A stretch of 55,842 nucleotides of DNA from a virus (taxonomy: Duplodnaviria; Heunggongvirae; Uroviricota; Caudoviricetes): IMG/VR virus record IMGVR_UViG_2923350032_000003; one strand, 5' to 3'. Shown here piece after piece: positions 11,474 through 54,311 of this stretch (the first letter of the stretch is position 1; each line of letters begins with the position of its first letter). The notes beneath the pieces are model-generated. The model ran no database searches. It worked only from the letters and a program-made list of their open reading frames with translations, and was not told the DNA's origin. The translations under genes and the position numbers were made by a program.

Positions 11474-11811
11474 CAGATCACCACTTCGTCAAACTGACAC
11501 GAAAAATCGGTATAGGTGATATGTTCTGTCGCTGACCACGTTCGACACACCACTCTGATTTTTCTGTTAATACCCGGCGGGCGCCAAAAAAAAGATTTAT
11601 AGCCTTCATGCCGGGCTAAAAATTTTTCAAATGAATCACGTTCATTCGCCTCAACTTTGAAATCACAGGTGAAAACGCGCAGAGAATGATTAAGTCCATT
11701 TGGACTTCGTTGCTCATAACCATCGCCAAATCTTACAGTTTTTATCGATGGTTTATTTTCTGTTTTCATTCCATCCTCTGGTAACCAGTGAAATTCTTCC
11801 GTATTAGCCAC
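11473..11811 (-). CDS. Minor tail protein M
   Basis: 112 aa; synteny between tape measure and L. Confidence 0.75.
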
Positions 11812-15972: not shown

Positions 15973-16475
15973 TCAATGCGTCCCCCTGTAGGGCAGTACC
16001 ACAGGAGGAATAACGGAAAATCAACTAATCGCCTCAGCACTGGCTTTTGCGATCACGGCAGCCGGGGAATTTTTTTTTCTGGTTATCGTAGGTGCTTCAT
16101 CTGCTGCGGTAATGCTCAATTGAACCTGGATAATGTCGCTATTACCCCCATCAGGCCATTCACCTGACACCTGAACCTTCGGGAAACTGAAAGTGTATGC
16201 CCCCTCTCCATTCGAAAGCGTGAAGCTGAACGGAACTGTTTCTCCAGTCAGTGTTTTACTCCAGATTTCCCACGCGGCTTTAGACCATGAAAGCGTCACC
16301 GTACCGGACGGTGTAAAAGTAGTCGGAATATTTGCTCCTGCATAAGGCGAGCCAGTCCCGATACAACGCTGTGTCTGGAGTTTGTTATCGAACTGAATAT
16401 CAAAACTGTCGATACAAAAACTGAACCGCCCCGGAAATCCTGGAGACTAAACTCCCTGAGAAAGAGGTAAACAGG

Positions 16476-16802
16476 ATGACTAAAAATACTCGTTTTTCCC
16501 CCGAAGTCCGTCAGCGGGCGATTCGTATGGTTCTGGAAAGTCAGGATGAATATGACTCACAGTGGGCGGCAATTTGTTCCATTGCCCCAAAGATTGGCTG
16601 TACGCCGGAGACTCTGCGTGTCTGGGTTCGCCAGCATGAGCGGGATACCGGGAGTGGTGATGGTGGACTCACCACCGCTGAACGTCAGCGTCTGAAAGAG
16701 CTGGAACATGAAAATCGTGAACTGCGCCGCAGTAACGATATCCTTCGCCAGGCTTCCGCTTATTTTGCGAAGGCGGAGTTCGACCGCCTCTGGAAAAAAT
16801 AA
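16476..16802 (+). CDS. IS629 transposase OrfA
   Basis: 108 aa, [23 protein letters not shown]..., HTH plus leucine zipper. Confidence 0.85.
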
Positions 16803-17689
16803 TGCCACTGCTGGATAAGCTGCGTGAGCAGTACGGGGTCGGACCGGTATGCAGCGAACTGCATATTGCCCCGTCAACGTATTACCATTGTCAGCAACAG
16901 CGACATCATCCGGATAAACGCAGTGCCCGTGCGCAGCACGATGACTGGCTGAAGAAAGAGATACAGCGCGTATACGATGAAAATCACCAGGTATACGGTG
17001 TGCGTAAAGTCTGGCGTCAGTTGTTACGGGAAGGTATCAGAGTGGCCAGATGTACAGTGGCGCGCCTCATGGCAGTTATGGGACTTGCCGGTGTTCTCCG
17101 GGGTAAAAAGGTCCGCACTACCGTCAGCCGGAAAGCCGTTGCCGCATGCGACCGCGTAAACCGTCAGTTCGTGGCAGAACGTCCAGACCAGTTGTGGGTG
17201 GCTGATTTTACCTGGGTAAGCACATGGCAGGGCTTCGTTTATGTGGCGTTCATCATTGATGTGTTCGCCGGATACATCGTGGGATGGCAGGTCTCATCAT
17301 CCATGGAAACAACATTCGTGCTGGATGCACTGGAGCAGGCGTTGTGGGCCCGTCGGCCGTCCGGCACAATCCATCACAGTGATAAAGGTTCTCAGTATGT
17401 ATCGCTGGCCTACACGCAGCGGCTTAAGGAAGCCGGATTACTGGCATCAACAGGGAGTACTGGCGACTCGTATGACAACGCGATGGCTGAGAGCATCAAT
17501 GGTCTTTACAAAGCGGAGGTAATACACCGTAAGAGCTGGAAAAACCGGACAGAAGTGGAACTGGCCACACTAACGTGGGTGGACTGGTATAACAATCGAC
17601 GATTGCTGGAAAGGCTGGGCCATATTCCTCCGGCAGAAGCAGAAAAAGCTTATTATGCTTCCATCGGAAATAATGATCTGGCAGCCTGA
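16802..17689 (+). CDS. IS629 transposase OrfB (DDE domain)
   Basis: 295 aa with integrase-core motifs. Confidence 0.85.
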   Translation: MPLLDKLREQYGVGPVCSELHIAPSTYYHCQQQRHHPDKRSARAQHDDWLKKEIQRVYDENHQVYGVRKVWRQLLREGIRVARCTVARLMAVMGLAGVLRGKKVRTTVSRKAVAACDRVNRQFVAERPDQLWVADFTWVSTWQGFVYVAFIIDVFAGYIVGWQVSSSMETTFVLDALEQALWARRPSGTIHHSDKGSQYVSLAYTQRLKEAGLLASTGSTGDSYDNAMAESINGLYKAEVIHRKSWKNRTEVELATLTWVDWYNNRRLLERLGHIPPAEAEKAYYASIGNNDLAA

Positions 17690-18322
17690 GTTCACAGATA
17701 AAATACTCTCCAGGAAACCCGGGGCGGTTCAAACCGTTACCTCCGGCAACACCATTCAGGCTTACTGCTGAAACCTCCTTAAACGAATAACGTAGCTTTC
17801 CTGCACTATCCACAGGTTCGCCTTTGATAAAATTCGTATCATCGGCCTTTGATTCCCAGTCCAGTCCGGCAAAGGTTACGGTCGCTGTAATATCGCCGTC
17901 GTTAGGGATCTGCATTTTCCATGAGCCAACCTGCGCTCCTCTGACGACAGAGGCAATTCCGACATCGGACGCATAGGTCGCCAGAGAAAATGTTATTCGC
18001 TCATTCCCCATTGTCAGAGAATCGCCTGACCATTCCGCGCCGAAACAGGATGCAAGAAAATCATCATGTTGACCCCAGCGAAATTTGGTACCAACATCAC
18101 CGCCGACATCCACAGTGCCAGGCGTCGCCCCCTGAGCCATCCGGGAGCCACCAATCTCATTATTTTCGCCTTTATTCTGGGTGGGTTTTACTCCCCAGCT
18201 TGTGCGTTTTAATAAACTCCAGTCACCACTTGCTGGCGTAGTGCCTGCAACCGTCTCCCGGATAAATGCCGAGATAACCTTTGCACCTGAACTCACAGGA
18301 GCCTCCTATGTCATTAATTGCG

Positions 18323-28205: not shown

Positions 28206-28516
28206 ATTCCTCCTCCTCCTCCCCGCCATGCATGATCTCCACCATGCGCTGCGTCATTCGGACAAATCCATTTTCAATAGCCTGCTGATAATCAATGATC
28301 ACCAGCGCCGACTCCTCGAAAAGGCACTGAATTTCAGCGGGGGCATGAGCGTAATAGTCCGCAATTCTGCTGAAATTAAACACTGTGTGACGTTCTGCCG
28401 CACACAGGAGGAATTTCTCAATATCAGGATCAAGGGACGCCGAACGTATCCGGCTGATCAGCTCCTGAGTTTTCGTATCGTCGTACAGTTCACTGATATC
28501 CGGTTTACTGTAGTGG

Positions 28517-29914
<1,398 letters not shown>

Positions 29915-30390: not shown

Positions 30391-31848
30391 TTAGGAGCGC
30401 CAAAAAAAACCTGAAAACAATATAATAACAGGATAAATTTCAAGGCGACCAAGAATCATAGCTATGCACATTAAATATTTTGCAATGTCATTAAGCACTC
30501 CGAATGACGATGCAGTAGCCCCAAAACCTAATCCCATATTATTAATACATGCAGCCACTGTTGCAAATGATGTAAGAAAATCATATCCCATACCATTTAA
30601 CACCAGTATAAAAAACACCGTGAAGAGAGTATAAAGAAAAAAGAAACTCCATACAGACCTCATTACACGATCTGTAACTATCTTCCCTCCTACATTTACA
30701 CTCAACAACGCTCTGGGATGAGAAAGCTGATTTATCTCGTGTTTGCTTTGTTTGAAAAGTATAAGAAATCGAAGTGACTTAATTCCACCACAGGTTGAAC
30801 CTATACATCCCCCAAAGAAACTTGACAACAGCAAAAACACTATCGTGTGCGTGGGCCAGTTTGCATAATCCTGCGTAGCTAAACCATTATCAGTGAGCAT
30901 GGAGCTGGCAAGAAAAAACGAATGAATAAAACTTCCATGCAAGTCATACATACCTATATGCCAGACCTGGAAAGAGGTAACAATGATCACCCCTAAGGCT
31001 ATTAACAGAAAGAAACGAAGTTCAATATCTCTGATTAAAGGTTTTATCGTTTTTCTGCTAATAACAATATACCAAAGAGTGAAGTTGAAAGCCGATAGCA
31101 GGGAAAAAGAACCAGCCACCAGCTCAACCAAATAGTTATTAAAATATCCGATACTCTCGCTATGAGTTGAGAAACCACCAAGCGAAACTGTGGAAATCCC
31201 GTGACAAATAGCATCAAACAAAGGCATTCCTGCAAGTCTATAACAGACAATACAAGCAATACCTAATAAAGAATAAGTTATCCACAGTGTCCGTGACGTA
31301 TCGGCCAGGCGGGGAGTGAGTTTGTCATCCTTAAATGGCCCCGGCATTTCTGACTGATAAAGCTTTGCACCACCAATACCCAATAATGGCAATACTGCAA
31401 CCGCCAGAACAATAACTCCTAAACCACCTATAAAATTTAACTGTGACCGATAGTACAAATATGCCCGAGGTAATGAACTAACATCATCAATTACAGTTGC
31501 TCCTGTTGTTGTTATTCCAGAAACCCCTTCAAACAGAGCATCAATGAACGTTAAATTAAGTTCTGAGTCAAACCATAAAGGGAATGCACTAATAACAGAA
31601 AACAAAATCCAAAACATTACAATTATAATAAACCCATCACGGGTACGTAATTGAATGCCAGATTTCTTAGTTGTATACCACGCTCCGCCACCAATGCAAA
31701 AAAATATAACGAAAGTTATAAAGAAAACGAACAGGCTTTTTTCTTTATAAAACAATGCTACAACCATTGGTGGCAACATTGAAAGACTATAGAGCCAAAC
31801 CAGGAACCCACACATATGAGTAACAACTCTTACATGAGATGTATTCAT
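30391..31848 (-). CDS. trkG: Potassium uptake protein TrkG (Rac prophage moron)
   Basis: 485 aa from MNTSHVRVVTHMCGF...; multi-pass membrane protein of Trk family. Confidence 0.85.
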   Translation of the reverse strand: MNTSHVRVVTHMCGFLVWLYSLSMLPPMVVALFYKEKSLFVFFITFVIFFCIGGGAWYTTKKSGIQLRTRDGFIIIVMFWILFSVISAFPLWFDSELNLTFIDALFEGVSGITTTGATVIDDVSSLPRAYLYYRSQLNFIGGLGVIVLAVAVLPLLGIGGAKLYQSEMPGPFKDDKLTPRLADTSRTLWITYSLLGIACIVCYRLAGMPLFDAICHGISTVSLGGFSTHSESIGYFNNYLVELVAGSFSLLSAFNFTLWYIVISRKTIKPLIRDIELRFFLLIALGVIIVTSFQVWHIGMYDLHGSFIHSFFLASSMLTDNGLATQDYANWPTHTIVFLLLSSFFGGCIGSTCGGIKSLRFLILFKQSKHEINQLSHPRALLSVNVGGKIVTDRVMRSVWSFFFLYTLFTVFFILVLNGMGYDFLTSFATVAACINNMGLGFGATASSFGVLNDIAKYLMCIAMILGRLEIYPVIILFSGFFWRS

Positions 31849-31985
31849 ATCTAAATATTCTTTCAATTATAACCACCTTGCTGCAATATTATGATTATAC
31901 TGTATAAAATTTAACTCCTCTTAGATCTTACTTCACTGTTCCTTATGAAACAATCATCAAAATGAATCATATTGTAGTTAAGATT

Positions 31986-34444: not shown

Positions 34445-34975
34445 ACAGCGAATCAGATCAAATAAAACGCACATTTGTTAACATTTACACAAAGTCTGCG
34501 TGGGATATTCTGAAAGAATATCCATAATGTGGAGAGAATCTATTGAAGTGCATGGTGCCGGGTGCCTCCCGGTGAACAAAATGTTCGTGATACCTGTCGG
34601 CGACAGAAAAGGTTAATGGTATCACCCCACCGCACAGGGGGATTCACCATGCAGGAGTTTTCTTAGCAAACTCACTGCGCGCCCGGCAACTCCCAACCAC
34701 ATAAAATGCGGAGTTTGTGGTATTTATGCATATAACTCGCAGGAATTATCTTAAAAAACTGATGTCGATCCGGATTAAAAAGAAGCAGGTCATCATCAGA
34801 TGACTGGAAAAAAGGAAAACAAAAAATACTCATCATACAGTTTTGATTGCAGGGATGAGCCTGCTATGCACAATATGCAGAATATAAGCAAGATAAAAAT
34901 ATGCAGGCATATTATTTCGGATTTTGTTATTAACACAACCTTTTTAATAATCATTTGGCATACAATAAACCAGCC

Positions 34976-35972: not shown

Positions 35973-36259
35973 AAATGACCTTTCTTTCTCCAGATTTCTT
36001 GTGTGCGAAAAACCCCTTCAGCATGCATCAGGCGCAATTCTTCTTTGGTGTAATCGCTGGTTTTTACCCGCCCGTCGATTAGATCGTGGCATGAGCTACA
36101 GGCTATCGCCGCCTGCATATCGTGTGGTTTTGTCGCTGTTCCGCACGTCCCCGCCAGCCTGTAATGCGCCAGCACAGAGGTTTCGGGATTGTGATTGCAG
36201 TAGCCAGGGATTCTGATCTGGCACATCTGGCCTTTAGCCGCTTTACGTAAATTCACCAT
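35969..36259 (-). CDS. DUF1364-type Cys-rich nin-region protein (YbcO-like)
   Basis: 96 aa with Cys/His cluster; position upstream of Q. Confidence 0.45.
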   Translation of the reverse strand: MVNLRKAAKGQMCQIRIPGYCNHNPETSVLAHYRLAGTCGTATKPHDMQAAIACSSCHDLIDGRVKTSDYTKEELRLMHAEGVFRTQEIWRKKGHL

Positions 36260-36858
36260 TACGCAAACTCCAGTAGTTGTGCGGCCACATTTTCAACTTC
36301 CTCCTGAGAGGAGAATTTACGAAACAGAATCCAGTTCCACAGCACATTCAGTACAGATTTATAAACCTGCTGAAACTCGACTTCGTCCATATTCGCAAAA
36401 GCGATGGATTTTGCCCGACGCCCACGGCTACCGTCCGGATAAATATGCTCGGTGTAAAATCCGGCCTGAATGGTTACCCACTCGCGGAAAGCCTCAAACG
36501 ACTTTAGCAACGCCGTATCCCGGGTTCTACGAGTCGCAACGGTGTTAAGGTATTGCTCTGCGGCATCACTCAGGGCTGGCGTGTGTTCCCGACCAACTGA
36601 TTCGCACAGGTAATCAACGAAACCAGACAGCAGTTCTCGTTCGCGAGGCGTGATCGCCCCACCGACCGGAGTCCAGTAATCGAATCCCAGTTGCAGGAGT
36701 TTGAAAAAACGCTTGTGGAATGCGTAGTTACGCACACGCTTAAAGTCTGCGTGTATCCACTCACCTATTTTGATTTGATGCAGAAAATCGCAACTCTCCG
36801 GCGTCGCCGGGAGAAGTAAACCAGAAGAAGTTTGTTTGACCAGTTGTATATGCGCCAT
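36259..36858 (-). CDS. DUF1367-type nin-region protein (YdfU-like)
   Basis: 199 aa; nin-region position. Confidence 0.4.
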   Translation of the reverse strand: MAHIQLVKQTSSGLLLPATPESCDFLHQIKIGEWIHADFKRVRNYAFHKRFFKLLQLGFDYWTPVGGAITPRERELLSGFVDYLCESVGREHTPALSDAAEQYLNTVATRRTRDTALLKSFEAFREWVTIQAGFYTEHIYPDGSRGRRAKSIAFANMDEVEFQQVYKSVLNVLWNWILFRKFSSQEEVENVAAQLLEFA

Positions 36859-37138
36859 TTCTCAATCTCTCGATGGCGCAGCGCAGCAGATGCCAGTTGT
36901 TCAGGCTGACGAATAAAGTATAAATAAACTGGCTATGGTGTAAAGCCCCACATAGCATGAACAAACACTACATATCAAATAGCTGGTACAAGGATAGAAA
37001 TACGACATTTATTATTAAAAACGATTAGATAAATTACATTTTAATGTTATGCAAAAGTTCTTTTTTATCATAACATTTCAATAAAAGCATTACAGATGCA
37101 ATCATCCCGTCATCATCAATTATTTAAGGTGGTTAAAC

Positions 37139-37225
37139 ATGGAAAATAACAAGTTCGCACATCTCGCTCCTTTTTTATCCGTAATCCTTTTCGCTTGTTG
37201 TTTTATATGGGCATTATTTTTATAA
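37139..37225 (+). CDS. Small hydrophobic peptide (28 aa), putative
   Basis: Hand-translated MENNKFAHLAPFLSVILFACCFIWALFL; AAGGTGG ribosome binding site 6 nt upstream; in an AT-rich intergenic region. Confidence 0.25.
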   Translation: MENNKFAHLAPFLSVILFACCFIWALFL

Positions 37226-37626
37226 AGTAGCCACATGATAAGTTGCTGGAATCATATTTCCCACTCAAGTCATTAACATTTGATAAGATATATCTAAAAG
37301 GACGCCTTTACATTATTTATGTGTATATAATTTATTTATATACACAGTAAAGGCATCCTGGGAAAATATTTATCGTTAAAAAATACATCATAAATAATCA
37401 AGCTGAAATTTCAGAACACAACTAATACACACAATAAGGTTCAGTAACAATAATCTATGTGGACTACATCGAGATTTTTTGATTAAACTTTAATAACTTA
37501 TTCCTAACACACAGAATGCATAAACTAAAAGTAAAACAAATAGTTATACGAAAAACAACCATATTTATTATATCTTCTCCTCTAATCAACATATCAATTA
37601 TGTGTTTCATAACAGCTTGACATAAC

Positions 37627-37663
37627 CCTCAAAAACACGCATTTATAATGCATGTTTTTGAGG
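37627..37663 (+). promoter_or_regulatory. 37-bp palindromic operator (NsrR-box-like) overlapping the promoter of the yeaR-like gene
   Basis: Perfect 11-bp arms cctcaaaaaca / tgtttttgagg flanking cgcatttataatgca; TTGACA at 37617-37622; GGAGG ribosome binding site at 37662-37666. Confidence 0.5.
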
Positions 37664-37671
37664 AGGTGGTT

Positions 37672-38010
37672 ATGACACACAAGAGAATTCCTAAAGATTG
37701 GGTAATCAAACGCTCAACTCCGTTCTTCACAAAAGAGAACGTACCTTCAGCGTTATTAACACATCATAATACAGCAGCAGGTGTTTTTGGGCAGTTGTGC
37801 GTAATGGAAGGCACTGTAACATATTATGGTTTTACTGATGAGAATGCTACTGAACCGGAGATAAAAGTAGTCATTAATGCTGGCGCTTTTGCAACAAGCC
37901 CACCACAATACTGGCACCGTGTTGAACTAAGCGATGATGCTCAGTTTAATATTAACTTTTGGGTCGCTCCAGACTTCTCGGGCGAAAAAGTCTATAGCAC
38001 CAAAAAATAG
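37672..38010 (+). CDS. DUF1971 protein, YeaR-like
   Basis: 112 aa from MTHKRIPKDW...; recalled similarity to E. coli YeaR; strong ribosome binding site. Confidence 0.65.
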   Translation: MTHKRIPKDWVIKRSTPFFTKENVPSALLTHHNTAAGVFGQLCVMEGTVTYYGFTDENATEPEIKVVINAGAFATSPPQYWHRVELSDDAQFNINFWVAPDFSGEKVYSTKK

Positions 38011-38037
38011 ATGATCATATTAAAAATGCTTTAACAG

Positions 38038-38075
38038 TCAGACCCGGCAGGGCTATCCCCGACGGGTCTCATTTT
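38038..38075 (+). terminator. Intrinsic terminator after yeaR-like gene
   Basis: GACCCGGCAGGG...CCCCGACGGGTC stem followed by TCATTTTTGT. Confidence 0.5.
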
Positions 38076-38733
38076 TGTAAATATATTGGTTCTACATTGA
38101 CAGGAGACTTCAACCATAAGAAGTAATCTGAATACTTGAGCAATAAATTTACTTAAGATTAATGAGCGCACCTTGCCGGACAAAGATAAACCAAGGTAAC
38201 ACCTTTTTTCTAGCCAGTATGTAATCAATCAGAAAGCCGCTCCATAAGAACAACAGCAAGACAATAAATTGCCATTACAGCCGCAATAGCTAGCGCACAT
38301 TTGAGAACCAGCACGACAACCTCCTGTATTGGACGTACACCAGTTCTGATAAATATGAGGCTGTCTCATCATTGATTCAATATAACTATTGGGTATAGTT
38401 TCTGTGATTTTGTTCTGTAGAAATGGAACACAACAACCAGTCACCACCAGCACTTCTTTAAATACGCCAAGTCCGACGCAAGCTAACCTTCTAGTCCGCT
38501 TTGAGCGAGGAGCGGACCAAACCCGGCCAACTGACTCTTAAAGGGGCCGCAGGAATTTTTCGTCTGAACTTTCGAAGCTCCTCTCCCTGAAGACAGAAAA
38601 CTTCTGTGTGCTGTGGGAATATTGAATCTTTGCCTTAGATATAAATAATTTTATCCCGCCTGAAGTTTACATTATTTTATTTATCTGTTTTTCTAAATCA
38701 GACTGCACTCCTTACTTAAATCAGGAGCCAGTC

Positions 38734-39933
38734 ATGCCATTTGTTATTTATGTGTTTACTATCAGTGCCTTTGCGCTCGGACTCGCGGAATTTGTCCCCA
38801 TTGGGCTGACAGACGTTATGGCTCAGGGGTTGTGTGTGGGTGTGGAGCAGACCGGGGCAGCGGTTACAACCTATGCACTGGGGGCAACGTTCGCGGCACC
38901 CGTACTGTCTGCGCTGACAGCAAGCTGGAGCCGGAAAAATGTAATGCTTACAACTGCCGTTGTGTTTACTGCCGGTAGTCTGGCGGCCGCGTTTGCAGCC
39001 ACATTACCTCAGCTCCTGTTAGCGCGGTTCATTGCTGGTCTGGGACACGGCCTGTTTCTGGCTGCGGCATCCAGTACCGCAGCTCGTCTTGCTGGACCGG
39101 GTAAAGCAGGCAGAGCGGTGGCTGTGGTATTTGGTGGCTTTACTCTGGCGATGGCAATCGGCGTACCGCTGAGTACATGGTTGGGGGGGGTGGTCTCATG
39201 GCGTCCAGTTCTCGGCGCTATTGCCGCTTTTGGCGCGTTCGGATTCCTTGGACTGTTGTTCGGTATGAAAGATCCCGTACGCAGCGTGCCCGGTGAACAT
39301 AGTGACTCAGCAATGCAGAATATCGGCATGCTGTTTAACCGTAAGTTGCTGGCCGGCGCGCTGGTTACGGTGCTGGCGTATGCAGGCTCGTTTACGGCTT
39401 ACACCTTTATCGCACCTATTCTGACGCAGGTGACAGGGGTTACCGGAGCAACGGTGAGTCTGTTTATGCTGGTTTACGGTATTACAGCTGCGGTAGGTAA
39501 TATTCTTGGTGGGAAACTTACCGACAGCATGGGGGTTAATCGTGCCAATATACTCATCATTAGCGGCATTGTTGTTGTCGTGCTTGGTATGTGGCTGCTG
39601 TCATCCTCACCGGTGAGCATGGGCATTCTGGTTGCGCTGCTGGGTATGGTGACATTTGCCGCAGTGCCGGCACTGCAGGCCCGTCTGATTGGTGTCGCTG
39701 AGCAACATGCTCCTCATGCGCATGGTGTTGCTGCCGGCCTGAATATTGCGGGCTTCAACTCAGGTATAGCGCTGGGATCAGTACTGGGCAGCATTACTAT
39801 AAGCCACGCCGGTATCGTGTATACCGGTATCAGCGGTGCGATTGTTTCTCTGCTCGGCCTGCTGTTGCTGCTTGCACAAATCCGTCGCAGCCACAGTCGT
39901 AAATTTCAACAGGTTAAAATCGTAGGCCAGTAA
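38734..39933 (+). CDS. MFS transporter (12-TM efflux type)
   Basis: 399 aa, hydrophobic throughout with MFS-like loop motifs. Confidence 0.7.
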   Translation: MPFVIYVFTISAFALGLAEFVPIGLTDVMAQGLCVGVEQTGAAVTTYALGATFAAPVLSALTASWSRKNVMLTTAVVFTAGSLAAAFAATLPQLLLARFIAGLGHGLFLAAASSTAARLAGPGKAGRAVAVVFGGFTLAMAIGVPLSTWLGGVVSWRPVLGAIAAFGAFGFLGLLFGMKDPVRSVPGEHSDSAMQNIGMLFNRKLLAGALVTVLAYAGSFTAYTFIAPILTQVTGVTGATVSLFMLVYGITAAVGNILGGKLTDSMGVNRANILIISGIVVVVLGMWLLSSSPVSMGILVALLGMVTFAAVPALQARLIGVAEQHAPHAHGVAAGLNIAGFNSGIALGSVLGSITISHAGIVYTGISGAIVSLLGLLLLLAQIRRSHSRKFQQVKIVGQ

Positions 39934-39944
39934 AGGGAGGTTAT

Positions 39945-40637
39945 ATGCTTACCCGTGAAAATATGCTTAATGGCACATTTGTCAGGGTGCATGAAGCGCT
40001 GCTCCCGGCGAATATGCTCTGGGACGCTGAAAAAATACGCGCATCAATGAACTCTACTCTGGAGGAGCGCCCGACGGGTGCTCCTGTCTGGATATTTGCC
40101 TACGGGTCATTGATGTGGAATCCCGTGCTGGCGATTGAAGAAATGCAACGGGCCCGTCTGAAAGGATGGCAGCGCAGTTTCTGCATTCGTTTGATATCCG
40201 GACGAGCGACTCCTGATGTCCCCGGCAGGATGTTATCGCTCGACGAAGGTGGAATTACCGAAGGTATTGCGTTCAGACTGCCGGAATCGACTCTTATTAA
40301 TGAGCTGGAAATTGTCTGGACGCGCGAGATGATAACCGGTCTTTACCGTCCGGTCTGGGCAGACGTTTCGCTAGGAAACGGTGAGGAAATTCAGGCGCTG
40401 GCTTTCGTATCAGACAGACTGCATCCGCATTATGAACAGGACAATCTTACAGCGACCGTAGCGTTGAGCATCGCATCTGCCCGTGGAGACATTGGCACGA
40501 ATGCAGATTATGTATGGAAACTGCAGGCCACTCTGGGTGCGTTGGGAATACGGGATGATTACGTGAGTGAACTGGCCCTTGCTCTGCATGAGTCTCCCTG
40601 TAACGATAAACTTCATCAGCGAGGCGCTTCACTATGA
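39945..40637 (+). CDS. ChaC-like gamma-glutamylcyclotransferase
   Basis: 230 aa; WIFAYGSLMWNP motif and overall resemblance to E. coli ChaC. Confidence 0.7.
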   Translation: MLTRENMLNGTFVRVHEALLPANMLWDAEKIRASMNSTLEERPTGAPVWIFAYGSLMWNPVLAIEEMQRARLKGWQRSFCIRLISGRATPDVPGRMLSLDEGGITEGIAFRLPESTLINELEIVWTREMITGLYRPVWADVSLGNGEEIQALAFVSDRLHPHYEQDNLTATVALSIASARGDIGTNADYVWKLQATLGALGIRDDYVSELALALHESPCNDKLHQRGASL

Positions 40638-41515
40638 GCCATCTGAGCCATCTGCGAACGTTTCTTGAGGCCTATCGCTCTGGCTCCTTTTCAAAGGCGG
40701 CAGAACTACTGGGCATCACTCAGCCCGCGGCGTCACAGCATATCCAGTCTCTTGAGACTCTGGTTGGTAAGCGTCTGTTTATCAGGCAGGCCAGAGGCGT
40801 GACGGCAACCGAAGCTGCGGATGAGCTTGCCCGCTCAGTTTCACCCTTCATTGATGGTCTGGAAGAAAAGCTGTCCTCTTTCCGGTCAGGCTCTGTACGC
40901 GGGGGAACAATTAATCTGGCAGGACCGCCAGATTTTATTCATTCCCGGCTTGGGACAGTAATGGCTCCACTAATGAAGGAGGGGTATCGCCTACGCTTTC
41001 ATACCGGCAATAAGCAACGTATTTATTCCCTTTTGCATGACGGGAGCGCCGATCTCGCTGTTACCGCATCTATGCCTGATGACCGTCTGTACGGCTATGC
41101 ACATCTACTGACTGAACGCATGCTCCTTGTTCATGCTCCCGCCATGTCAGAGATCATCGGATCAGAACCTGGTGCTGAAACGCTTGCCTCATTACCGCTG
41201 ATTGCTTATGACGAAGAGTTGCCACTGATTAGAGCGCTCTGGGCCTCCATGTTTCAGAGAGCCCCTGAGATGCAGGCTACATTCACCATTCCGGATTTAC
41301 GTATTATCCGCGACTTGGTCTGTGACGGCCACGGGTGGACAGTGCTGCCGGATTATCACTGTGACAATGACCTGAAAAGTGGTCGCCTGATTTCAGTGAC
41401 ACCTGCAGACCTCGCTCCGACTAATCATCTTTATCTGGTCTGGAACAAAAGGACGGCTAATAACAGCCGAACCGCCTATGTTCGGGATTACATTCTTAAA
41501 ACGTTTCCGCGTTGA
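40634..41515 (+). CDS. LysR-family transcriptional regulator
   Basis: 293 aa; N-terminal HTH (FSKAAELLGITQPAASQHIQSLE); start overlaps chaC-like stop. Confidence 0.8.
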   Translation: MSHLSHLRTFLEAYRSGSFSKAAELLGITQPAASQHIQSLETLVGKRLFIRQARGVTATEAADELARSVSPFIDGLEEKLSSFRSGSVRGGTINLAGPPDFIHSRLGTVMAPLMKEGYRLRFHTGNKQRIYSLLHDGSADLAVTASMPDDRLYGYAHLLTERMLLVHAPAMSEIIGSEPGAETLASLPLIAYDEELPLIRALWASMFQRAPEMQATFTIPDLRIIRDLVCDGHGWTVLPDYHCDNDLKSGRLISVTPADLAPTNHLYLVWNKRTANNSRTAYVRDYILKTFPR

Positions 41516-41560
41516 TGTTTGAAACGGATGATTGGAGATGCGTATCATAAGTTACGTATG

Positions 41561-41600
41561 TCCGCTTCTGGCACAAAGCAGACGCCCACTCTCACGCGAA
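41561..41600. repeat. Copy A of an about 36-bp direct repeat (core TGGCACAAAGC-GAC-CCAC)
   Basis: Matches 45225-45260 at about 28 of 36 positions. Confidence 0.4.
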
Positions 41601-41645
41601 TGCTTTGCCCTTGACTTGCCAACAACCGTATCGCTTGCTCCGCAA

Positions 41646-42938
41646 CTATGGTTTTTTATTAGAATCTTCGCCACTAAATAAATTATAATAAATTGATTTT
41701 ATTAGATATCTATCAGAATCTATATGGTCAGCACGAGTAGCATGCTCTAATGTTTCAAATGCTAGGGTTTGTGCGGCTTCAGCAAAAATTCCAGGCCAAC
41801 CCTTACTCAGCATCGACAGTCCTTTAAGTACCCTTATCTGAATTTCCCTCATACTGGCACCATCGCGCGCAACAGGTGAGAAAAAGTCTTCAAGTAGATC
41901 GTTATTCTGAAGTGGTGCAACATGTACAGAAGGATATTTCACTTCTATTTCATCAGATTTATTCTGCGCGTAAGCGGAAAGTATACGTACACCTCTGCCA
42001 ATGACATCAATGGCGGTTCCAGGATCGTTCACTGCGGGGGAAAGGGCTCGGCAGGCTATTTCGGCCATGACGCTAAGACAAAATCGGGGGTCCTGAGCAA
42101 ATGAACGTACATCCGAGACAATAATCGTCTCAAGTAAATCGGTGCTGATTGATGACTCCTGGCCCTGACTCAGGTACAAAACTGGCGTGGACGGATGTAT
42201 GAAACTGCCCGGCTGCGCCACGAGGTATACATGACGGGGATCATTGGTCAGCAGCTTGCTGAGTTTCACCATATCAACATATTCAACATAGCCAATCTTT
42301 TTCGGATAAACTGCAACCGTTCCTTTCGGCTGTTCATTGTTCTCAAGCCATGGATATCCGCCGAGACAGGGATTTCTTGCTCTCGCAATAAATGTTTCGA
42401 TGGCCGCCTGTTCTACTTTTGCCGTTGTCTCACCAACCCTCCCCAGAGAGGTCAAATGCTGTATCCAGCGAAGCAATGTGATGAGGATTAAGGCAATGAC
42501 AACCAGTGTTACAATGAATAAAATGACTCTCCCCCTTTCTCCATAAGCTCCCATATTGAGGGCAATAATCCCTACCAGACTGAAGAGAAAAGAACCGATG
42601 AAGGTGGCCAGTACATTTTGTGTGGTGACGTCTTCAACAACTAAACGAGTAGCTCTGGGAGTCACATTAGTAGTGGCTGAACCGTAGGCTGTGACCATGA
42701 TGCTCAGCGAAAATGTGGTCACTGCCAGCATACTCGATGCCAGTATGTTCAGAATGTTATCGACTGCTTCCGCACCAACCTTCACGGAAACCGACTCAGG
42801 TATCATTGATTTAAAAAGAATTGATAAAAGGGCCGTTATTATTGCGACAATTGCGAATAACGTTGCCCTGAACCATAGTTTTTTAAATGTCTGCTTCAGC
42901 ATCCATTTCCAGCGTGAAATCATTCTGCATTCCCTCAT
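41646..42938 (-). CDS. DUF2254-like membrane protein
   Basis: 430 aa; N-terminal multi-TM region plus C-terminal soluble domain. Confidence 0.5.
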   Translation of the reverse strand: MRECRMISRWKWMLKQTFKKLWFRATLFAIVAIITALLSILFKSMIPESVSVKVGAEAVDNILNILASSMLAVTTFSLSIMVTAYGSATTNVTPRATRLVVEDVTTQNVLATFIGSFLFSLVGIIALNMGAYGERGRVILFIVTLVVIALILITLLRWIQHLTSLGRVGETTAKVEQAAIETFIARARNPCLGGYPWLENNEQPKGTVAVYPKKIGYVEYVDMVKLSKLLTNDPRHVYLVAQPGSFIHPSTPVLYLSQGQESSISTDLLETIIVSDVRSFAQDPRFCLSVMAEIACRALSPAVNDPGTAIDVIGRGVRILSAYAQNKSDEIEVKYPSVHVAPLQNNDLLEDFFSPVARDGASMREIQIRVLKGLSMLSKGWPGIFAEAAQTLAFETLEHATRADHIDSDRYLIKSIYYNLFSGEDSNKKP

Positions 42939-42986
42939 ATTGCAGCCGGGATAAATAAATGCCGCCTCTGTGGCGGCATGTTGCTG

Positions 42987-44990
42987 TTAACGAACCAGAT
43001 GCAGGAAGTGCAGGTGTTTTTCGTACTGGTCCAGTATGTCATTAATCAGCTGTTCCTGATTCCAGCCCATTACATCATAATTTTGGCCGCCCTCTTTGAG
43101 ATAGACTTCAGCGCGATAATATCGATGTTGTTCACTCTGCTGCTCATCATTATCCAGCGCAGCGAGCGCGAAGGTCGGTGAGTTATACCCGCGAAGCCTC
43201 ACTTCATATATATAATTCAGCTCGTTGCCCAAATCGACTTCAAGGCGAATACGATCCTCGGCGGCGTCACTGATGTGGCTTATCGTTCCCTGCTTGTTAA
43301 GTTCCTCCTGAACCAGCGTCATGGCGGGTTGGATAATGTCGTCCATAAAACGTTTCACAAGAGAGCGCTTCGGCAAATACGCGATATTGCGTAACCTTCT
43401 CTGCCAGGGAATTGGGTTACGTGCAGCCGTAGGAGCAATAGTCGCCATGCTAAGGCTTTCACGCTTGGTCAAATCCCGACGCAGGGCTTTTAACAGTCCG
43501 TATATGGATATTAATAAGATAACTGAGAAGGGCAATGCACTCGCTATCGTTACGGTTTGCAACGCACTCAGCCCCCCTGCGATCAGCAGGGCAATAGCAA
43601 CAACGCCCATGAGCGATGCCCAGAAAATTCGCTGCCAGACGGGCGTGTTTGCCACCCCACCTGATGCCAGAGTATCCACAACCATTGCCCCCGAATCAGC
43701 AGACGTTACAAAGAAGACGATGACCATCGCCATTGCAATGAATGACAGCACGGAAGAGAACGGGAAATGCTCCAGGAAATTAAACAGGGCAAGCGCAACA
43801 TCCTGCTGAACGGTATTGGCGAGGTCAGTGGCGCCCTGGTTCATGATGAGATAGATGGCGCTGTTTCCAAACACCGTCATCCACATGAGCGTAAAGCCGG
43901 CGGGAACAAACAACACGCCAGTCACGAACTCACGAATTGTCCTGCCGCGGGAAACGCGTGCAATGAACATACCTACAAACGGCGACCATGAAAGCCACCA
44001 TCCCCAGTATAATAATGTCCAGCCCCCCAGCCAGTTGCTCGACTTGGGTTCATACGCGTAAAGGTTGAACGTTTTACTCACCAGTTCCGACAGATAACCA
44101 CCCGTATTTTCCACAAATGACTTCAGCAGAAGCACAGTGGGACCCAGGCACAAGACCAGCGCCAGGAGCAACACCGCCAGGCCCAGATTAAGCTCAGACA
44201 GGATGCGTATTCCCTTGTCCAGGCCGGACACCACCGAAATCGTCGCTAACCCCGTGATGACCACGATCAAAATGACCTGTACCGTTTCATTGATGGGCAC
44301 GCCGAAAAGATGGTTCAAACCGGCATTCACCTGCAATACACCGTAACCCAGCGATGTTGCAACGCCAAAGACAGTGCCTATCACGGCGAAGATATCAACC
44401 GCGTGGCCTATAGGCCCGTAAATGCGATCGCCGATAATGGGATAGAGCGCAGAACGCAGCGTTAAAGGCAGACCGTGACGGTAACTGAAAAAGGCCAGAA
44501 TCAGCGCCACGATGGCATAAATTGCCCATGCGTGCAGACCCCAGTGGAAGAACGTCAGGCGCATGGCTTCCTTCGCTGCCGCAACGGTCTCTGGAGTGCC
44601 GACAGGTGGCGAAAGATAATGCATCACAGGTTCGGCAACGCCAAAGAACATCAGGCCGATCCCCATCCCTGCCGAAAAAAGCATCGCGAACCAGGAGTGG
44701 TAGCTGAAATCAGGCTGCGCATGGTCTGGGCCCAGCTTTATATCACCGTAACGTGAGAGTCCAAGGAACGTGACGCTCAGTAAAATCAGGGCCACAGCAA
44801 GTATGTAGAACCAGCTGGCATTCGTGAAGATTTGTTGCTGAAGTAGTTTAAAATTTTTGTCGGCGACATCCGGGAATACGGCGGCAAAGGCGACAAGAAG
44901 GAAAATTAGCAAAGCAGATGTAAAGAATACCGCTTTGTTAATCTGGCTTGTAGACTTCTTTGGGGTTGTATCATTTTCACTCATAATCAT
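42987..44990 (-). CDS. BCCT-family transporter (BetT-like)
   Basis: 667 aa; BCCT-type TM topology and long cytoplasmic C-terminal tail as in recalled BetT. Confidence 0.75.
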   Translation of the reverse strand: MIMSENDTTPKKSTSQINKAVFFTSALLIFLLVAFAAVFPDVADKNFKLLQQQIFTNASWFYILAVALILLSVTFLGLSRYGDIKLGPDHAQPDFSYHSWFAMLFSAGMGIGLMFFGVAEPVMHYLSPPVGTPETVAAAKEAMRLTFFHWGLHAWAIYAIVALILAFFSYRHGLPLTLRSALYPIIGDRIYGPIGHAVDIFAVIGTVFGVATSLGYGVLQVNAGLNHLFGVPINETVQVILIVVITGLATISVVSGLDKGIRILSELNLGLAVLLLALVLCLGPTVLLLKSFVENTGGYLSELVSKTFNLYAYEPKSSNWLGGWTLLYWGWWLSWSPFVGMFIARVSRGRTIREFVTGVLFVPAGFTLMWMTVFGNSAIYLIMNQGATDLANTVQQDVALALFNFLEHFPFSSVLSFIAMAMVIVFFVTSADSGAMVVDTLASGGVANTPVWQRIFWASLMGVVAIALLIAGGLSALQTVTIASALPFSVILLISIYGLLKALRRDLTKRESLSMATIAPTAARNPIPWQRRLRNIAYLPKRSLVKRFMDDIIQPAMTLVQEELNKQGTISHISDAAEDRIRLEVDLGNELNYIYEVRLRGYNSPTFALAALDNDEQQSEQHRYYRAEVYLKEGGQNYDVMGWNQEQLINDILDQYEKHLHFLHLVR

Positions 44991-45224
44991 TTATTCCATT
45001 AATTAAATCCGCACTGGATAGAAGGTACTACCTCTCACAGAGTAGCAAAGTTCAACTGGCTATGCGGGGTTAATCGGAATGCATGGTGGAATGAGTGCCG
45101 ATACAAATCATCCTATATTCTAAGGAGTTTTAAGTTACTCAGCCTGCCAATTACTGGGGCATTTAATTTGTATGATCTGTATCAAAGCTGGGATATAAGT
45201 TAAGTGAAGTATATTAGGCACGAA

Positions 45225-45260
45225 TTACCAGCGTCTGCTCTTGGCACAAAGCGGACAACC
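45225..45260. repeat. Copy B of the about 36-bp direct repeat
   Basis: Matches 41561-41600; lies about 240 bp upstream of the BCCT gene start. Confidence 0.4.
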
Positions 45261-45324
45261 ACGCTAGCTCTACCCTGTGCCACAAAATGTCAATTTGCAT
45301 CTGAACTAATGCACTTTAATCTCG

Positions 45325-45747
45325 TCACTTCAATAAATACCGAACATCCCCCTGATAAAACGACAATATGCGCTGCATAACTTCGCTCTTCCGGCACTCG
45401 CGACAGATTATGTTTAGGCGACTGTCGTAGCGACGTATTTCTCCGTCAGGTAATGACCAGATAAGGTCCGGATCAACCACAACCGGTTTCTTCAGCTTTG
45501 CCCTCGATAATTTTTTGCGGGCATTTTGCCAGTCTTTACGAGCCTGTTCAGACGGGAACAACCCGTAGCCAGAATTGTATACATCGCCACTGGCAACCAG
45601 CTCTCTGGCCAGAACGCTCATCAGATATCTTGTTGCCCCAGTTTTAGCTTCCAGTTGTCGTAACGTCTCGCGCCCACTCTGGCGTACGAGTTCAAGAACC
45701 TGCCCTTTAATTTTTTCCCGCTCTTCTTGTGTAAAAACTTTTGCCAC
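45325..45747 (-). CDS. Hypothetical protein in the replication module (possible winged-HTH)
   Basis: 140 aa, follows the ydaU-like gene where K-12 Rac has DnaC-like ydaV; no Walker motif. Confidence 0.35.
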   Translation of the reverse strand: MAKVFTQEEREKIKGQVLELVRQSGRETLRQLEAKTGATRYLMSVLARELVASGDVYNSGYGLFPSEQARKDWQNARKKLSRAKLKKPVVVDPDLIWSLPDGEIRRYDSRLNIICRECRKSEVMQRILSFYQGDVRYLLK

Positions 45748-45787: not shown

Positions 45788-46864
45788 TTACCCCCTGAAG
45801 CCCGGCGGAATTTCGTTATCCGGTTCAGAAATATGATTCACACAACGCTGGTTGTTCGTGCCGCTTACCGGGAGCAACCAGGGGTTCTCAAAATTCCGGT
45901 CCGGTCCAAAAAACGTCGTCGCTCGCTGAACAAATTCCGTTCCCGTTTTCCCGGTAGCCGCCAAGTATCTTGCGTAACGCCTCACGCCATCCAGCATGGC
46001 CTCTGGTGGCACCCCCTCGCGTAATCTGGCCTTCCAGGCACTGAAAGCGGATTTCTTCGGGTTTGCCCCAGCACGCAACGGGTACTCCCGCCAGACCTGT
46101 TCGAACACATCCGGATAATCCACTCGTCCCACAGACTGCCCGGTGTTTTCCGGGACTACCCGATCGGCTTCCCGCTGAATGGCGGAATCGGCTTCAGGCT
46201 GCTGCAGTTGGTGTGATTGCTCCGCCCTTGCGGTCATCACCTGCTGCACAGCGCCCGAATCGGCTTTCAGCGCATACGCTGAATCGGCTTCCGGTGTCGT
46301 GCCTGCTGGCTGACCAAGATTGACGGTCTGAACATCCCCTGCCTGGTTCGTGGCGTTTTTTACGCCATGGACCATAGTGTTTTGATCTTCTTGATCTGTA
46401 TCTTTATCTGTATCTTTATCTGTCGTGACTCGTCGTGACATGTGCGTGACATTTCGTGACGCGCCGTGACAATCGCCATTTTGTTCCCGCTTTCTTTCCC
46501 TCTCTCGCTGCGCCCTCTTGCGCTCTGCAGGAGATTTTGCGATTTGCGAAATATTGCCGTTGTCCTCTTTAAGCACCTGGCGTTTTTCCCATCCAGTGAT
46601 TAAATCACCATCAAGTACCCGCCCCTGCATCGTCTGCAAAATTGAATCAATTACCTCTTCTGTCACGTCGAGCGCACTTGCCAAATCTTCTGTCGTGACA
46701 TCAATGTGACCTCGCGTGACATTTCGTGACGCGCTCACCAGGAGGTGGATATACACTGCCATCACTGTTGCAATTGGCTGTCCTGACACCCTGGCAATTG
46801 TTCGCCACTTAGGGTCATTTGGCATGTCATGCCATAATCTGAGCCAGGCGTTAGCCATACTCAC
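45788..46864 (-). CDS. YdaU-like replication initiation protein
   Basis: 358 aa; internal acidic repeat TDKDTDKDTD; contains two iteron-like arrays in its coding sequence. Confidence 0.5.
   Translation of the reverse strand: MSMANAWLRLWHDMPNDPKWRTIARVSGQPIATVMAVYIHLLVSASRNVTRGHIDVTTEDLASALDVTEEVIDSILQTMQGRVLDGDLITGWEKRQVLKEDNGNISQIAKSPAERKRAQRERERKREQNGDCHGASRNVTHMSRRVTTDKDTDKDTDQEDQNTMVHGVKNATNQAGDVQTVNLGQPAGTTPEADSAYALKADSGAVQQVMTARAEQSHQLQQPEADSAIQREADRVVPENTGQSVGRVDYPDVFEQVWREYPLRAGANPKKSAFSAWKARLREGVPPEAMLDGVRRYARYLAATGKTGTEFVQRATTFFGPDRNFENPWLLPVSGTNNQRCVNHISEPDNEIPPGFRG
46391..46470. repeat. Iteron-like array 1 inside the ydaU-like gene (tandem atctgtatcttt repeats, then five CGTGAC at about 10-bp spacing)
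   Basis: tgtcgtgac / tcgtcgtgaca / tgtgcgtgac / atttcgtgac / gcgccgtgac. Confidence 0.5.
46691..46730. repeat. Iteron-like array 2 inside the ydaU-like gene (four GTGAC at 10-bp spacing)
   Basis: tgtcgtgaca / tcaatgtgac / ctcgcgtgac / atttcgtgac. Confidence 0.5.
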
Positions 46865-53914: not shown

Positions 53915-54109
53915 ATGAGATATGACAATGTTAAACCATGTCCATTTTGTGGTTGTCCATCAGTAACGGTGAAAGCCATTTCAGGATATTACCGAGCGAA
54001 GTGTAACGGATGCGAATCCCGAACCGGTTATGGTGGAAGTGAAAAAGAAGCACTCGAAAGATGGAATAAACGAACCACTGGAAATAATAATGGAGGTGTT
54101 CATGTATAA
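53915..54109 (+). CDS. ralR: Restriction alleviation protein Lar/RalR
   Basis: 64 aa from MRYDNVKPCPFCGCPSV...; Cys4 zinc-ribbon-like. Confidence 0.8.
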   Translation: MRYDNVKPCPFCGCPSVTVKAISGYYRAKCNGCESRTGYGGSEKEALERWNKRTTGNNNGGVHV

Positions 54110-54311
54110 AATTACCGCCACTATTGAAAAGGAAGGTGGCACTCCTACTAACTGGACAAGATATTCAAAATCTAAACTAACGAAATCAGAATGCGAAAAA
54201 ATGCTCTCAGGTAAAAAAGAAGCAGGCGTTTCCAGAGAGCAGAAAGTAAAACTGATAAATTTTAATTGCGAGAAACTTCAGTCCTCGAGAATTGCATTGT
54301 ATTCAAATTAA
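54102..54311 (+). CDS. ydaC: YdaC
   Basis: 69 aa from MYKITATIEKEGG... Confidence 0.7.
   Translation: MYKITATIEKEGGTPTNWTRYSKSKLTKSECEKMLSGKKEAGVSREQKVKLINFNCEKLQSSRIALYSN

Follow-up and report, generated by a model that had tools for sequence, protein, structure and literature searches.

How a set of transporter and stress genes came to lie between the replication genes and the nin region of a prophage is the question raised by positions 36859-45324 of IMG/VR record IMGVR_UViG_2923350032_000003 (Caudoviricetes), a stretch of 55,842 nt that was analysed as a whole and that we call the window. A preliminary description of this DNA had read the segment as a single 8.5-kb block of host-like genes, comprising a yeaR-like gene, an operon of MFS transporter, ChaC-like, and LysR genes, a DUF2254 membrane protein gene, and a gene for a BetT-like BCCT transporter. 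The six genes, their coordinates, and the AT-rich spacers (GC content of 0.31 at 36859-37671 and 0.41 at 38011-38733, compared to 0.48 for the whole window) agreed with our Pfam, NCBIfam, and RefSeq annotation. The idea of a single block did not hold. We found instead two variable spots separated by conserved phage backbone, the larger of which contains two independently assorting cassettes, and the genes are not host-like chromosome but cargo in circulation among prophages, plasmids, and islands. The block consists of four parts: a phage leader of ~370 bp, a DUF1971 moron of ~1 kb, a backbone piece of 284 bp (piece B), and a cargo slot of 6.76 kb.

The preliminary description had also left the arrival of these genes unclear, as neither an integrase nor an insertion sequence (IS) lay at the block borders. 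That absence was confirmed, as Pfam searches, annotation, and open reading frame (ORF) scans detected no IS, transposase, or integrase within or bordering 36.8-45.4 kb. A specific route can now be proposed. We consider it probable that the block is accessory cargo acquired stepwise by one Rac-type prophage, with its cassettes placed by recombination inside three 24-bp palindromic sites and with a 200-amino acid tyrosine recombinase, acting in trans, as the candidate enzyme.

Palindromic sites mark the borders of the cargo slot

The window contains three copies of the arm pattern GTCYGCT-N10-AGCRGAC, compared to 0.00 expected from shuffled sequences, and each copy lies at a module border. Site L (38494-38517; halves GTCCGCTTTGAG and CGAGGAGCGGAC) forms the left slot border, at the joint between piece B and the MFS-ChaC-LysR cassette (cassette C). 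Site M (41560-41583; GTCCGCTTCTGG and CACAAAGCAGAC) is of the R type and joins cassette C to the DUF2254-BCCT cassette (cassette D), and site R (45233-45256; GTCTGCTCTTGG and CACAAAGCGGAC) forms the right slot border, at the joint between cassette D and the backbone. Within each site, two 12-bp halves of the form GTCYGCTNNTNG are inverted about a central GC. The core types differ, with ...GAGCGA... in L and ...TGGCACA... in R; site L resembles the reverse complement of R, in that both share GTCCGCTTTG.G, but the cores are distinct. Single-strand folding of the sites was weak (-3 to -7 kcal/mol, z-scores of -1.3 to +0.2), which fits a predicted duplex protein-binding site better than a structural hairpin. 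Structural hairpins and intrinsic terminators were rejected on the basis of this weak folding and the lack of a T run after the sites, and a known RNA element was rejected because no Rfam family matched.

We compared the slot across 80 IMG/VR viral contigs that contain the R site plus its flank. Between piece B and the gene for a DUF977 protein on the right flank, these sister loci carry at least 12 cargo types of 1.0-6.7 kb, and these L and R sites also enclose cargoes of 1.4 kb and 1.8 kb in the phages Evi and Tritos. The flanks are therefore kept while the slot contents vary, which is the outcome of a comparison with Rac-like prophages that the preliminary description had proposed. The alternative cargoes that could be identified include PDC-S15/FRG, AbiH, a Lit-like peptidase, RES, an Mrr-like nuclease, and a GNAT acetyltransferase with an XRE/cupin regulator. 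In one cargo, an IS110-family transposase has been inserted next to the GNAT gene; another gave weak HEPN/RES-type matches below the Pfam cut-off, and several matched no family. Judged by predicted family, several of the sister-slot cargoes are defence-like.

The junctions in these loci followed a simple rule. At the left border, a constant GTCCGCTTTGAGCGA is followed by a cargo-specific ..GCRGAC (12 cargo types). At the right border, a cargo-specific GTCYGCTN is followed by a constant TTGGCACAAAGCGGAC, and this outer half and its flank are constant in the 80 viral contigs. At M, a partner-specific left half is followed by a constant TGGCACAAAGCAGAC that stays with cassette D, which is joined via M to five different upstream partners. 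Homology to the backbone always ended inside the sites. Among 11 distinct cargo-side L halves, 8 were within one mismatch of AGCRGAC, far above chance for a fixed 7-mer position. The outer half of each site thus tracks the backbone and the inner half tracks the cargo, a pattern that points to recombination inside the sites. The core classes were equally discrete: approximately 260 of the 274 arm-matching 24-mers in 2.4 Mb of target loci had an L (GAGCGAG) or R (TGGCACA) core, compared to none of the 15 arm matches in 1.48 Mb of control loci.

Cassettes are shared across prophage families, plasmids, and islands

Sequence comparison placed the same cassettes in a second prophage family, on plasmids, and in chromosomal islands as well, with homology ending at the sites. 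The second prophage family is Qin-like; its R site adjoins relB-relE, it has the same two site types, and its outer L half is GTCCGCTAAGAG. A 2.2-kb cargo common to the Rac-type and Qin/relBE-type backbones is 99.87% identical between them, with homology running from the first base of L to the last base of R and nothing similar outside the sites. Two differences fall within L, both in the outer half and both backbone-specific (TT versus AA). No target-site duplication was present at this cargo (flanks ...ccttcta / aaccacg... and ...tgctaat / agtgatc...). In Escherichia coli K-12 MG1655, the Qin prophage carries flxA in a 991-nt cassette between R-type and L-type sites (NC_000913.3, sites at 1645981 and 1646972; 1645981-1646995 overall). 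The annotated ydfV coding sequence crosses this R site and so spans a backbone-cassette junction, and it may not be a real gene.

On plasmids, cassette C occurs alone in the Klebsiella IncF plasmid NZ_LR890357 (92% identity), with an L-type and an R-type site on either side and homology stopping at the sites. Cassette D was found at 99.8-99.9% identity on 68 plasmid records and at ~93% on more than 1300, mostly from Klebsiella. The one of the 68 records that was inspected, the IncY plasmid pPO125, also carries qnrS1. Its array reads site, 1-kb cassette, recombinase, site, other cargo, M, D, R, and then relB. The 1-kb cassette is 99.8% identical to a Rac-slot cassette, and both it and cassette D end at sites. 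Since the right flank is Qin-type backbone, the plasmid probably captured a prophage slot. The locus (NZ_MW077912, 3249-10700) of this P1-like plasmid amounts to a shortened Qin-type slot in which the small recombinase is accompanied by three or four cassettes; IS26 cuts it on one side, and it ties the cargo system to resistance plasmids.

To delineate the modules further, sub-segments of the block were searched separately across 5426 complete E. coli genomes. The full block was present in 280 genomes, cassette C in 296-310, and the DUF1971 module in 449, with a distribution independent of cassettes C and D; IMG/VR relatives likewise combine the DUF1971 module with other slot contents. Cassette D was found at 99% identity or higher in 408 records and at ~94% in ~1550 further E. 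coli chromosomes. Two of these ~94% chromosomal copies were inspected, one beside fim genes and one beside fec genes, both in IS-rich regions, and the one fim-linked copy that was read has a degenerate M site where homology ends. A search for a donor of cassette D among 185,579 species representatives gave no clear chromosomal source, the nearest DNA being at 90-92% identity in Citrobacter braakii and Raoultella. In C. braakii ATCC 51113 (contig ~9650-12250), a BCCT gene of 90% identity that lacks a DUF2254 partner is flanked by an M-type site and by a degenerate R site; it is located at a prophage end with tail genes and adjoins a tRNA-like fragment.

A small tyrosine recombinase is associated with the sites

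Some slots, as well as pPO125, encode a 200-amino acid protein that consists of a tyrosine-recombinase catalytic domain only (Pfam Phage_integrase, 2e-17). Its motifs KLRGCD, HSMRRT, LLGH, and VRYLG are of the type that holds the catalytic R..HxxR..H..Y residues. The protein passes no NCBIfam model, with Xer-type recombinases and tyrosine-type invertases as the best sub-threshold matches, and its best PDB match is XerD (E = 0.004). We read 18 copies of the enterobacterial type (63-100% identical). In 17 of these, a TCGCT/TTGCT stretch, the reverse complement of the L-type core, starts ~60 nt upstream of the gene's start codon, and the eighteenth copy (locus L248) has the same element shifted by 2 nt. 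The gene side of this upstream element is constant and the far side variable; a full site at -63 was detected under the arm criterion in 7 of 31 loci scanned. At the other end of the gene, 15 of the 18 copies have a terminator hairpin behind the stop codon that leads straight into an R-type half-site (..CCCTGTGCCA followed by NNAGCGGAC), and the three exceptions have a truncated or divergent gene end.

The same half-site frame was found in other genomes. In Proteus, an identical recombinase protein occurs in three distinct genomic contexts in which the neighbours on both sides differ each time and include TIR, SMC-like, SIR2, restriction-modification, and UmuDC genes. In a marine element resembling an integrative and conjugative element (ICE), a recombinase with this frame lies between arsenic and copper resistance genes. 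In an island of strain Nissle 1917, the recombinase gene (280796-281398; protein WP_001305361) sits in a regular array of L- and R-type sites (NZ_CP007799, ~279200-283600) that includes an L-18 nt-R doublet. This array holds single-gene cassettes (the ETEC_3214 family and hypotheticals) and lies beside a dynamin/RdcB/patatin cluster. Pairs of R-type and L-type sites exactly 18 nt apart recur in the loci we read, at -1216 and -1174 from R in L088 and L236, at 3256 and 3298 in L243, and at 11723 and 11765 in L312; they look like either a minimal linker between cassettes or a slot emptied of the recombinase gene.

Palindromes of the form GTCCGCT...AGCGGAC, whose cores differ slightly, also adjoin homologues with 55-66% identity. 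This is a very large family, with at least 8000 candidates; among the matches listed, many genera of the Gammaproteobacteria are represented at 77-95% identity. Of the 5426 E. coli genomes, 717-932 carry the gene, and strain MJ-T (NZ_CP172111) has both the recombinase and this block.

Other enzymes were considered. The half-sites contain GTCYG, and we therefore considered the PinR serine invertase and Tn3-type resolvases; these were rejected, as the sites are accompanied by the tyrosine recombinase and not by any serine recombinase. K-12 'intK/ydfW' was rejected as a remnant of the recombinase, since YdfW bears no relation to it and no homologue is present in the K-12 Qin segment. Collectively, comparison across genomes establishes how the sites are built and the rule that their junctions follow, and it shows that different backbones share cassettes and that the recombinase accompanies the sites. 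It makes the 200-amino acid tyrosine recombinase the likely enzyme for the sites, as a candidate by association.

The block lies within a single Rac-type prophage

The genomic setting of the block was compared with complete prophages. One E. coli strain is 100% identical across window positions 36500-45700, and its RefSeq annotation agrees on the genes. Apart from IS differences, the window aligns collinearly, at 99.99%, with one Rac-type prophage carried by E. coli 13KWH46; this prophage extends from a pinR/tail-fibre end adjoining ynaM/uspF to intR adjoining ttcA. The order of modules is that of a lambdoid map: replication/ren-like genes, slot, ninB to Q, lysis, trkG, terminase, head, and tail, with int at ttcA. 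The phages Evi, Tritos, and vB_EcoS-666R9, which have been isolated, share these flanks and carry different cargo in this position. The window represents a single lambdoid prophage of the Rac type, collinear and located at ttcA, and the genes lie, as the preliminary description had it, between the nin/Q side and the replication side of one prophage.

Both flanks are phage genes. On the left is a DUF1367 gene of the NinB/Orf type, the first of the nin region (36259-36858, minus strand; Pfam PF07105, 6e-98; phrog_319, NinB/Orf). On the right is the DUF977 (Ren-like) gene (45325-45747, minus strand; Pfam PF06163), beside a replication initiator gene recognised by phrog profile match (45788-46864, minus strand), with phrog_142 and phrog_3729 matching the DUF977/initiator pair. 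The block had been described as sitting where K-12 Rac has ydaV/ydaW. The DUF977 gene occupies the ydaW position, with the block just downstream. K-12 YdaW was rejected as a homologue of the DUF977 protein because the two gave no alignment and no detectable similarity, and K-12 Rac has lost the entire region, such that ydaW directly abuts rzpR'.

A proposed site-specific exchange model and its alternatives

We propose that the block was assembled in steps. The YeaR-like gene with its NsrR-type operator would have filled a small variable spot that is held by hok/mok in sister phages, and cassettes C and D would have been placed in the 6.76-kb slot, between the ren-like/replication genes and the nin region, through recombination inside the sites. 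A crossover of L with L would fuse two replicons and a crossover of R with R would resolve them, with the segments between the sites swapped, a scheme that resembles recombinase-mediated cassette exchange with two incompatible sites. Site M would arise by an R-with-R crossover between arrays. The catalyst would be the 200-amino acid tyrosine recombinase encoded elsewhere, with the cassettes in the window as passengers delivered in trans. Exchange of this kind would account for the hybrid junctions, the two site classes, the lack of empty slots and of target duplications, and single-site joints such as M. We infer the catalysis, directionality, and site compatibility of this system from the comparisons described above.

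A broader proposal, which we put forward tentatively and at somewhat less than even odds, is that the recombinase and the incompatible L and R sites form a widespread cassette-exchange system that moves cassettes among prophages, plasmids, islands, and ICE-like elements across the Gammaproteobacteria. Its cargo would include anti-phage defence, transporters, metal resistance, and regulators, with the Rac/Qin slots, K-12 flxA, the Nissle 1917 island, and pPO125 as examples.

Several observations weigh against site-specific exchange as the origin of the block and its functions. There is no copy of the small recombinase in the window, and recombination was read from comparative junctions throughout. 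Two exact-pattern scans of IMG/VR, which cover exact patterns only, found no empty slot. The C-D joint has one site rather than two, so that a further R-with-R crossover has to be assumed. Degenerate half-sites occur in some cargoes, and the IMG/VR loci, being mostly E. coli prophages, are not independent samples. Conserved short palindromes could also provide microhomology for RecET/Red-type recombination. With respect to the cargo, no equivalog of a characterised protein is found among the six, the BCCT transporter passing a subfamily model only, and the transporter and stress functions are predicted from family membership.

The palindromes may be mere linkers, for example regulatory or insulating, between which cargo is swapped by homologous recombination (RecET, Red, or NinB/Orf) with no dedicated site-specific recombinase. 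The notion of boundary sequences separating lambdoid modules is an old one, RecE/RecT and a protein of the NinB/Orf type are encoded by the prophage, and the lack of the small recombinase in the window and of an empty site in the scans, both noted above, also speaks for this reading. We regard this explanation as unlikely, however, because unrelated cargoes bring their own matching half-site (8 of 11 L inner halves), exchange has occurred between backbones with only the 24-bp sites in common, crossovers map within ~12 bp, there are two discrete core classes, and the recombinase gene is framed by half-sites consistently and across genera. The resemblance of L to the reverse complement of R, together with the fact that the homology common to both backbones takes in both complete sites, would also suit cassettes that are non-autonomous transposon-like elements, with the 24-bp ends as terminal inverted repeats and a transposase in trans. 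The 2.2-kb cargo, however, has no target-site duplication, and the outer half-site tracks the backbone instead of the cargo; the associated enzyme is a tyrosine recombinase and not a transposase, and the slot is a fixed position rather than one of many scattered insertions. We therefore give transposition very little credence.

It is similarly improbable that the sites are used by the host XerC/XerD recombinases, as in the pdif modules of Acinetobacter plasmids, with the small recombinase as a bystander. In pdif modules, too, short sites in opposite orientation enclose discrete cargo on replicons of several types, and the best, sub-threshold family matches of the recombinase are Xer-type. The E. 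coli dif site is GGTGCGCATAATGTATATTATGTTAAAT. Compared by eye with this sequence, the sites here are unlike dif, and they are tightly associated with the 200-amino acid recombinase. Least credible of all is the scenario by which the preliminary description would have been refuted, namely that the late and early regions are two prophage remnants with ordinary chromosome between them. The genes do look like chromosomal housekeeping types, and a 94% identical DUF2254-BCCT pair is present in many E. coli chromosomes. The flanks, however, are adjacent modules of one lambdoid map and are shared by Evi, Tritos, and vB_EcoS-666R9, and the chromosomal copies inspected lie in IS-rich regions near fec and fim, not at this locus. 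Collinearity with one prophage and the existence of free phages of the same architecture exclude the two-remnant scenario. Exchange within the palindromic sites remains the reading that we favour.

The small variable spot carries a DUF1971 moron between conserved backbone

The preliminary description had counted the AT-rich spacers as part of the block. They are AT-rich, but 36859-37226 and 38210-38493 are conserved phage backbone. The first of these segments is the leader, which is backbone and not cargo: block positions 23-368 match sister prophages lacking DUF1971 at 73-77% identity. Within the leader is a 28-amino acid hydrophobic ORF, MENNKFAHLAPFLSVILFACCFIWALFL (37139-37225, plus strand), with an AAGGTGG ribosome-binding site, and the surrounding ~350 bp are conserved at 73-77% in sister prophages. 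This ORF could encode a small membrane peptide or be a type-I-toxin-like gene.

The DUF1971 moron (37227-38209, plus strand) comprises an NsrR-like operator and the YeaR-like gene (37672-38010, plus strand; Pfam PF09313, 2.6e-26; the program-listed ORF begins at 37648). In relatives, hokD/mokW take the place of this moron, and the window has no hok. The DUF1971 protein is 41% identical to K-12 YeaR. Directly upstream of the gene, the palindrome AACACGCATTTATAATGCATGTT (37631-37653) matches the ytfE NsrR site at 19 of 23 positions (PMC5320621). The gene and its promoter region thus combine a DUF1971 domain with the 11-1-11 inverted repeat characteristic of NsrR sites, and a similar element is present at the K-12 yeaR promoter. 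yeaR is a known NsrR target that is induced ~160-fold by nitrate or nitric oxide (NO) in strain CFT073 (PMC5320621). The operator suggests that the moron has its own regulation and would be wired into the host NO regulon, and the DUF1971 gene is probably responsive to NO or nitrate through host NsrR.

Piece B (38210-38493) ends exactly at site L and is 93-100% identical in ~50 sister prophages and 94% identical in Evi and Tritos, irrespective of cargo. In relatives it lies ~200 bp from hokD/mokW. It contains a 29-amino acid hydrophobic ORF, MLVLKCALAIAAVMAIYCLAVVLMERLSD (38314-38225, minus strand), with a GTG start and an AGGAGG ribosome-binding site.

Predicted functions of the cassettes

Cassette C (38518-41559, plus strand) encodes, by Pfam assignment, an MFS transporter (38734-39933), a ChaC-like gamma-glutamylcyclotransferase (39945-40637; PF04752, 3e-35, 122 bits compared to a cut-off of 21), and a LysR regulator (40634-41515), all on the plus strand. 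The ChaC-like protein has no NCBIfam equivalog match. From these families, cassette C probably provides a LysR-controlled transporter and a gamma-glutamyl cyclotransferase.

Cassette D (41584-45232, minus strand) was delimited with Pfam, NCBIfam, and a terminator scan. It encodes a DUF2254 membrane protein (41646-42938, minus strand; Pfam) and a BCCT transporter of the BetT subfamily (42987-44990, minus strand; Pfam BCCT, 7e-199; NCBIfam NF007399, 752 bits compared to a cut-off of 695), with a terminator-like hairpin between the two genes (42959-42979). Aligned end to end over 672 positions, including the C-terminal domain, the BCCT protein and K-12 BetT share 42% identity; the BCCT protein probably confers uptake of choline/betaine-type osmoprotectants. 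The functions suggested in the preliminary description are therefore reasonable at the family level, given the BetT-subfamily BCCT transporter, the ChaC domain, and the YeaR-like gene with its NsrR-operator match. The block genes are nonetheless distant paralogues, and not orthologues, of E. coli BetT, YeaR, and ChaC, with likeness at the family or domain level. Unlike K-12 betT, which lacks such a partner, the BCCT gene here always travels with the DUF2254 membrane protein gene.

Other features of the block and prophage

None of the six block proteins matched a PADLOC defence model, and Rfam gave nothing credible over 36.5-45.8 kb. Consensus promoter matches in the block were close to expectation (15 found, 14.0 expected), and terminator-like sites numbered 16 compared to 8.8 expected. 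Elsewhere in the prophage, an IS3 between the lysis genes and tolA-like genes is present in 13KWH46 and absent from the window. Conversely, the window has an extra IS3-type insertion of ~1.3 kb (16421-17731; Rfam ALIL, the IS3-type frameshift pseudoknot, at 16757-16873) that interrupts the tail-tube gene, such that this copy of the prophage is probably defective and unable to make tails. A second IS3-family element (~28516-29693) splits a ParB/Srx-like gene beside trkG, with Rfam isrC at its edge (29576-29698). Three further Rfam matches scored above the gathering score, all on the minus strand: the small RNA STnc100 near the Q/tolA-like region (34496-34682), the RalA antitoxin small RNA of the ralRA system (54108-54286), and IS009 adjoining pinR (1273-1471). 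The potassium-transporter gene trkG (30391-31866, minus strand), a classic Rac moron, has a GC content of 0.38 compared to 0.48 for the window and is a precedent for host-type transporters as Rac cargo.

Comparison with known exchange systems

In its general arrangement the locus resembles lambdoid morons and prophage hotspots such as Rac trkG and lambda lom/bor, in which replaceable accessory genes occupy a fixed spot between conserved modules. The P2/P4 defence hotspots of Rousset et al. are a comparison case for prophage cargo hotspots (PMC9122126). The likeness extends to the sister-phage replacements, which are partly defence-like, and to the atypical GC content of part of the cargo. In contrast to moron hotspots, the slot has 24-bp palindromic borders composed of a backbone half and a cargo half, and the same cassettes and borders occur outside phages. 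To our knowledge, neither border sites nor a dedicated recombinase have been described in moron hotspots.

Integrons share with this locus a tyrosine recombinase with exchangeable cassettes, short palindromic sites, hybrid junctions, and defence or resistance cargo. The block, however, has no IntI, and the 200-amino acid recombinase falls far below the cut-offs of Xer and integron models. Instead of attC hairpins of 55-140 bp with R and L boxes, the locus has near-perfect 24-bp palindromes that fall into two core classes, and the cassettes are multi-gene, have their own regulators, and occur in either orientation, with the recombinase gene framed by sites on both sides. The pdif (XerC/D) modules similarly have discrete cargo between oppositely oriented short sites on several replicons, with homology ending at the sites. 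They differ in that dif, with its XerC arm, 6-bp spacer, and XerD arm, is by eye unrelated to the sites described here, which are associated with a dedicated small recombinase. In addition, the pdif hosts are Acinetobacter, whereas the hosts here belong to the Enterobacterales and other Gammaproteobacteria, with prophages, islands, and plasmids as carriers.

The FimB/FimE invertases and the shufflon recombinase Rci, small tyrosine recombinases that lack an arm-binding domain, are comparable in size (~200 amino acids), and the weak NCBIfam matches of the recombinase include tyrosine-type invertases. Inversion of a fixed segment, as in those systems, was not seen, and cassettes keep their L-to-R polarity in every context examined. 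Engineered exchange with heterospecific lox or FRT sites is similar in having two incompatible site types flanking a segment. Judging from the arrangement of sites and cassettes, the natural function of the site and recombinase system appears to be exchange between replicons. We found no prior description of the block, the sites, or the recombinase in the searchable full-text literature, a limited corpus, such that an earlier description elsewhere is possible.

Implications

The block itself is ordinary prophage moron cargo, like trkG of the same prophage, and the noteworthy part is the site-and-recombinase system. From the gene families present, the lysogen plausibly gains osmoprotectant uptake, gamma-glutamyl/glutathione turnover, and an NO-responsive gene, which is ordinary material for lysogenic conversion. 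Prophage and island hotspots are known for the turnover of defence and accessory genes, and exchange with clean borders is mostly unexplained; the block offers a concrete and checkable answer for one very common hotspot. If correct, site-internal exchange would supply a small natural tool for cassette exchange and a simple sequence rule for delimiting cassettes, and hence for finding new defence genes. It would also explain why a near-identical DUF2254-BCCT pair is found both in a Rac-type prophage of E. coli and on 68 plasmid records, the inspected one of which carries qnrS1.

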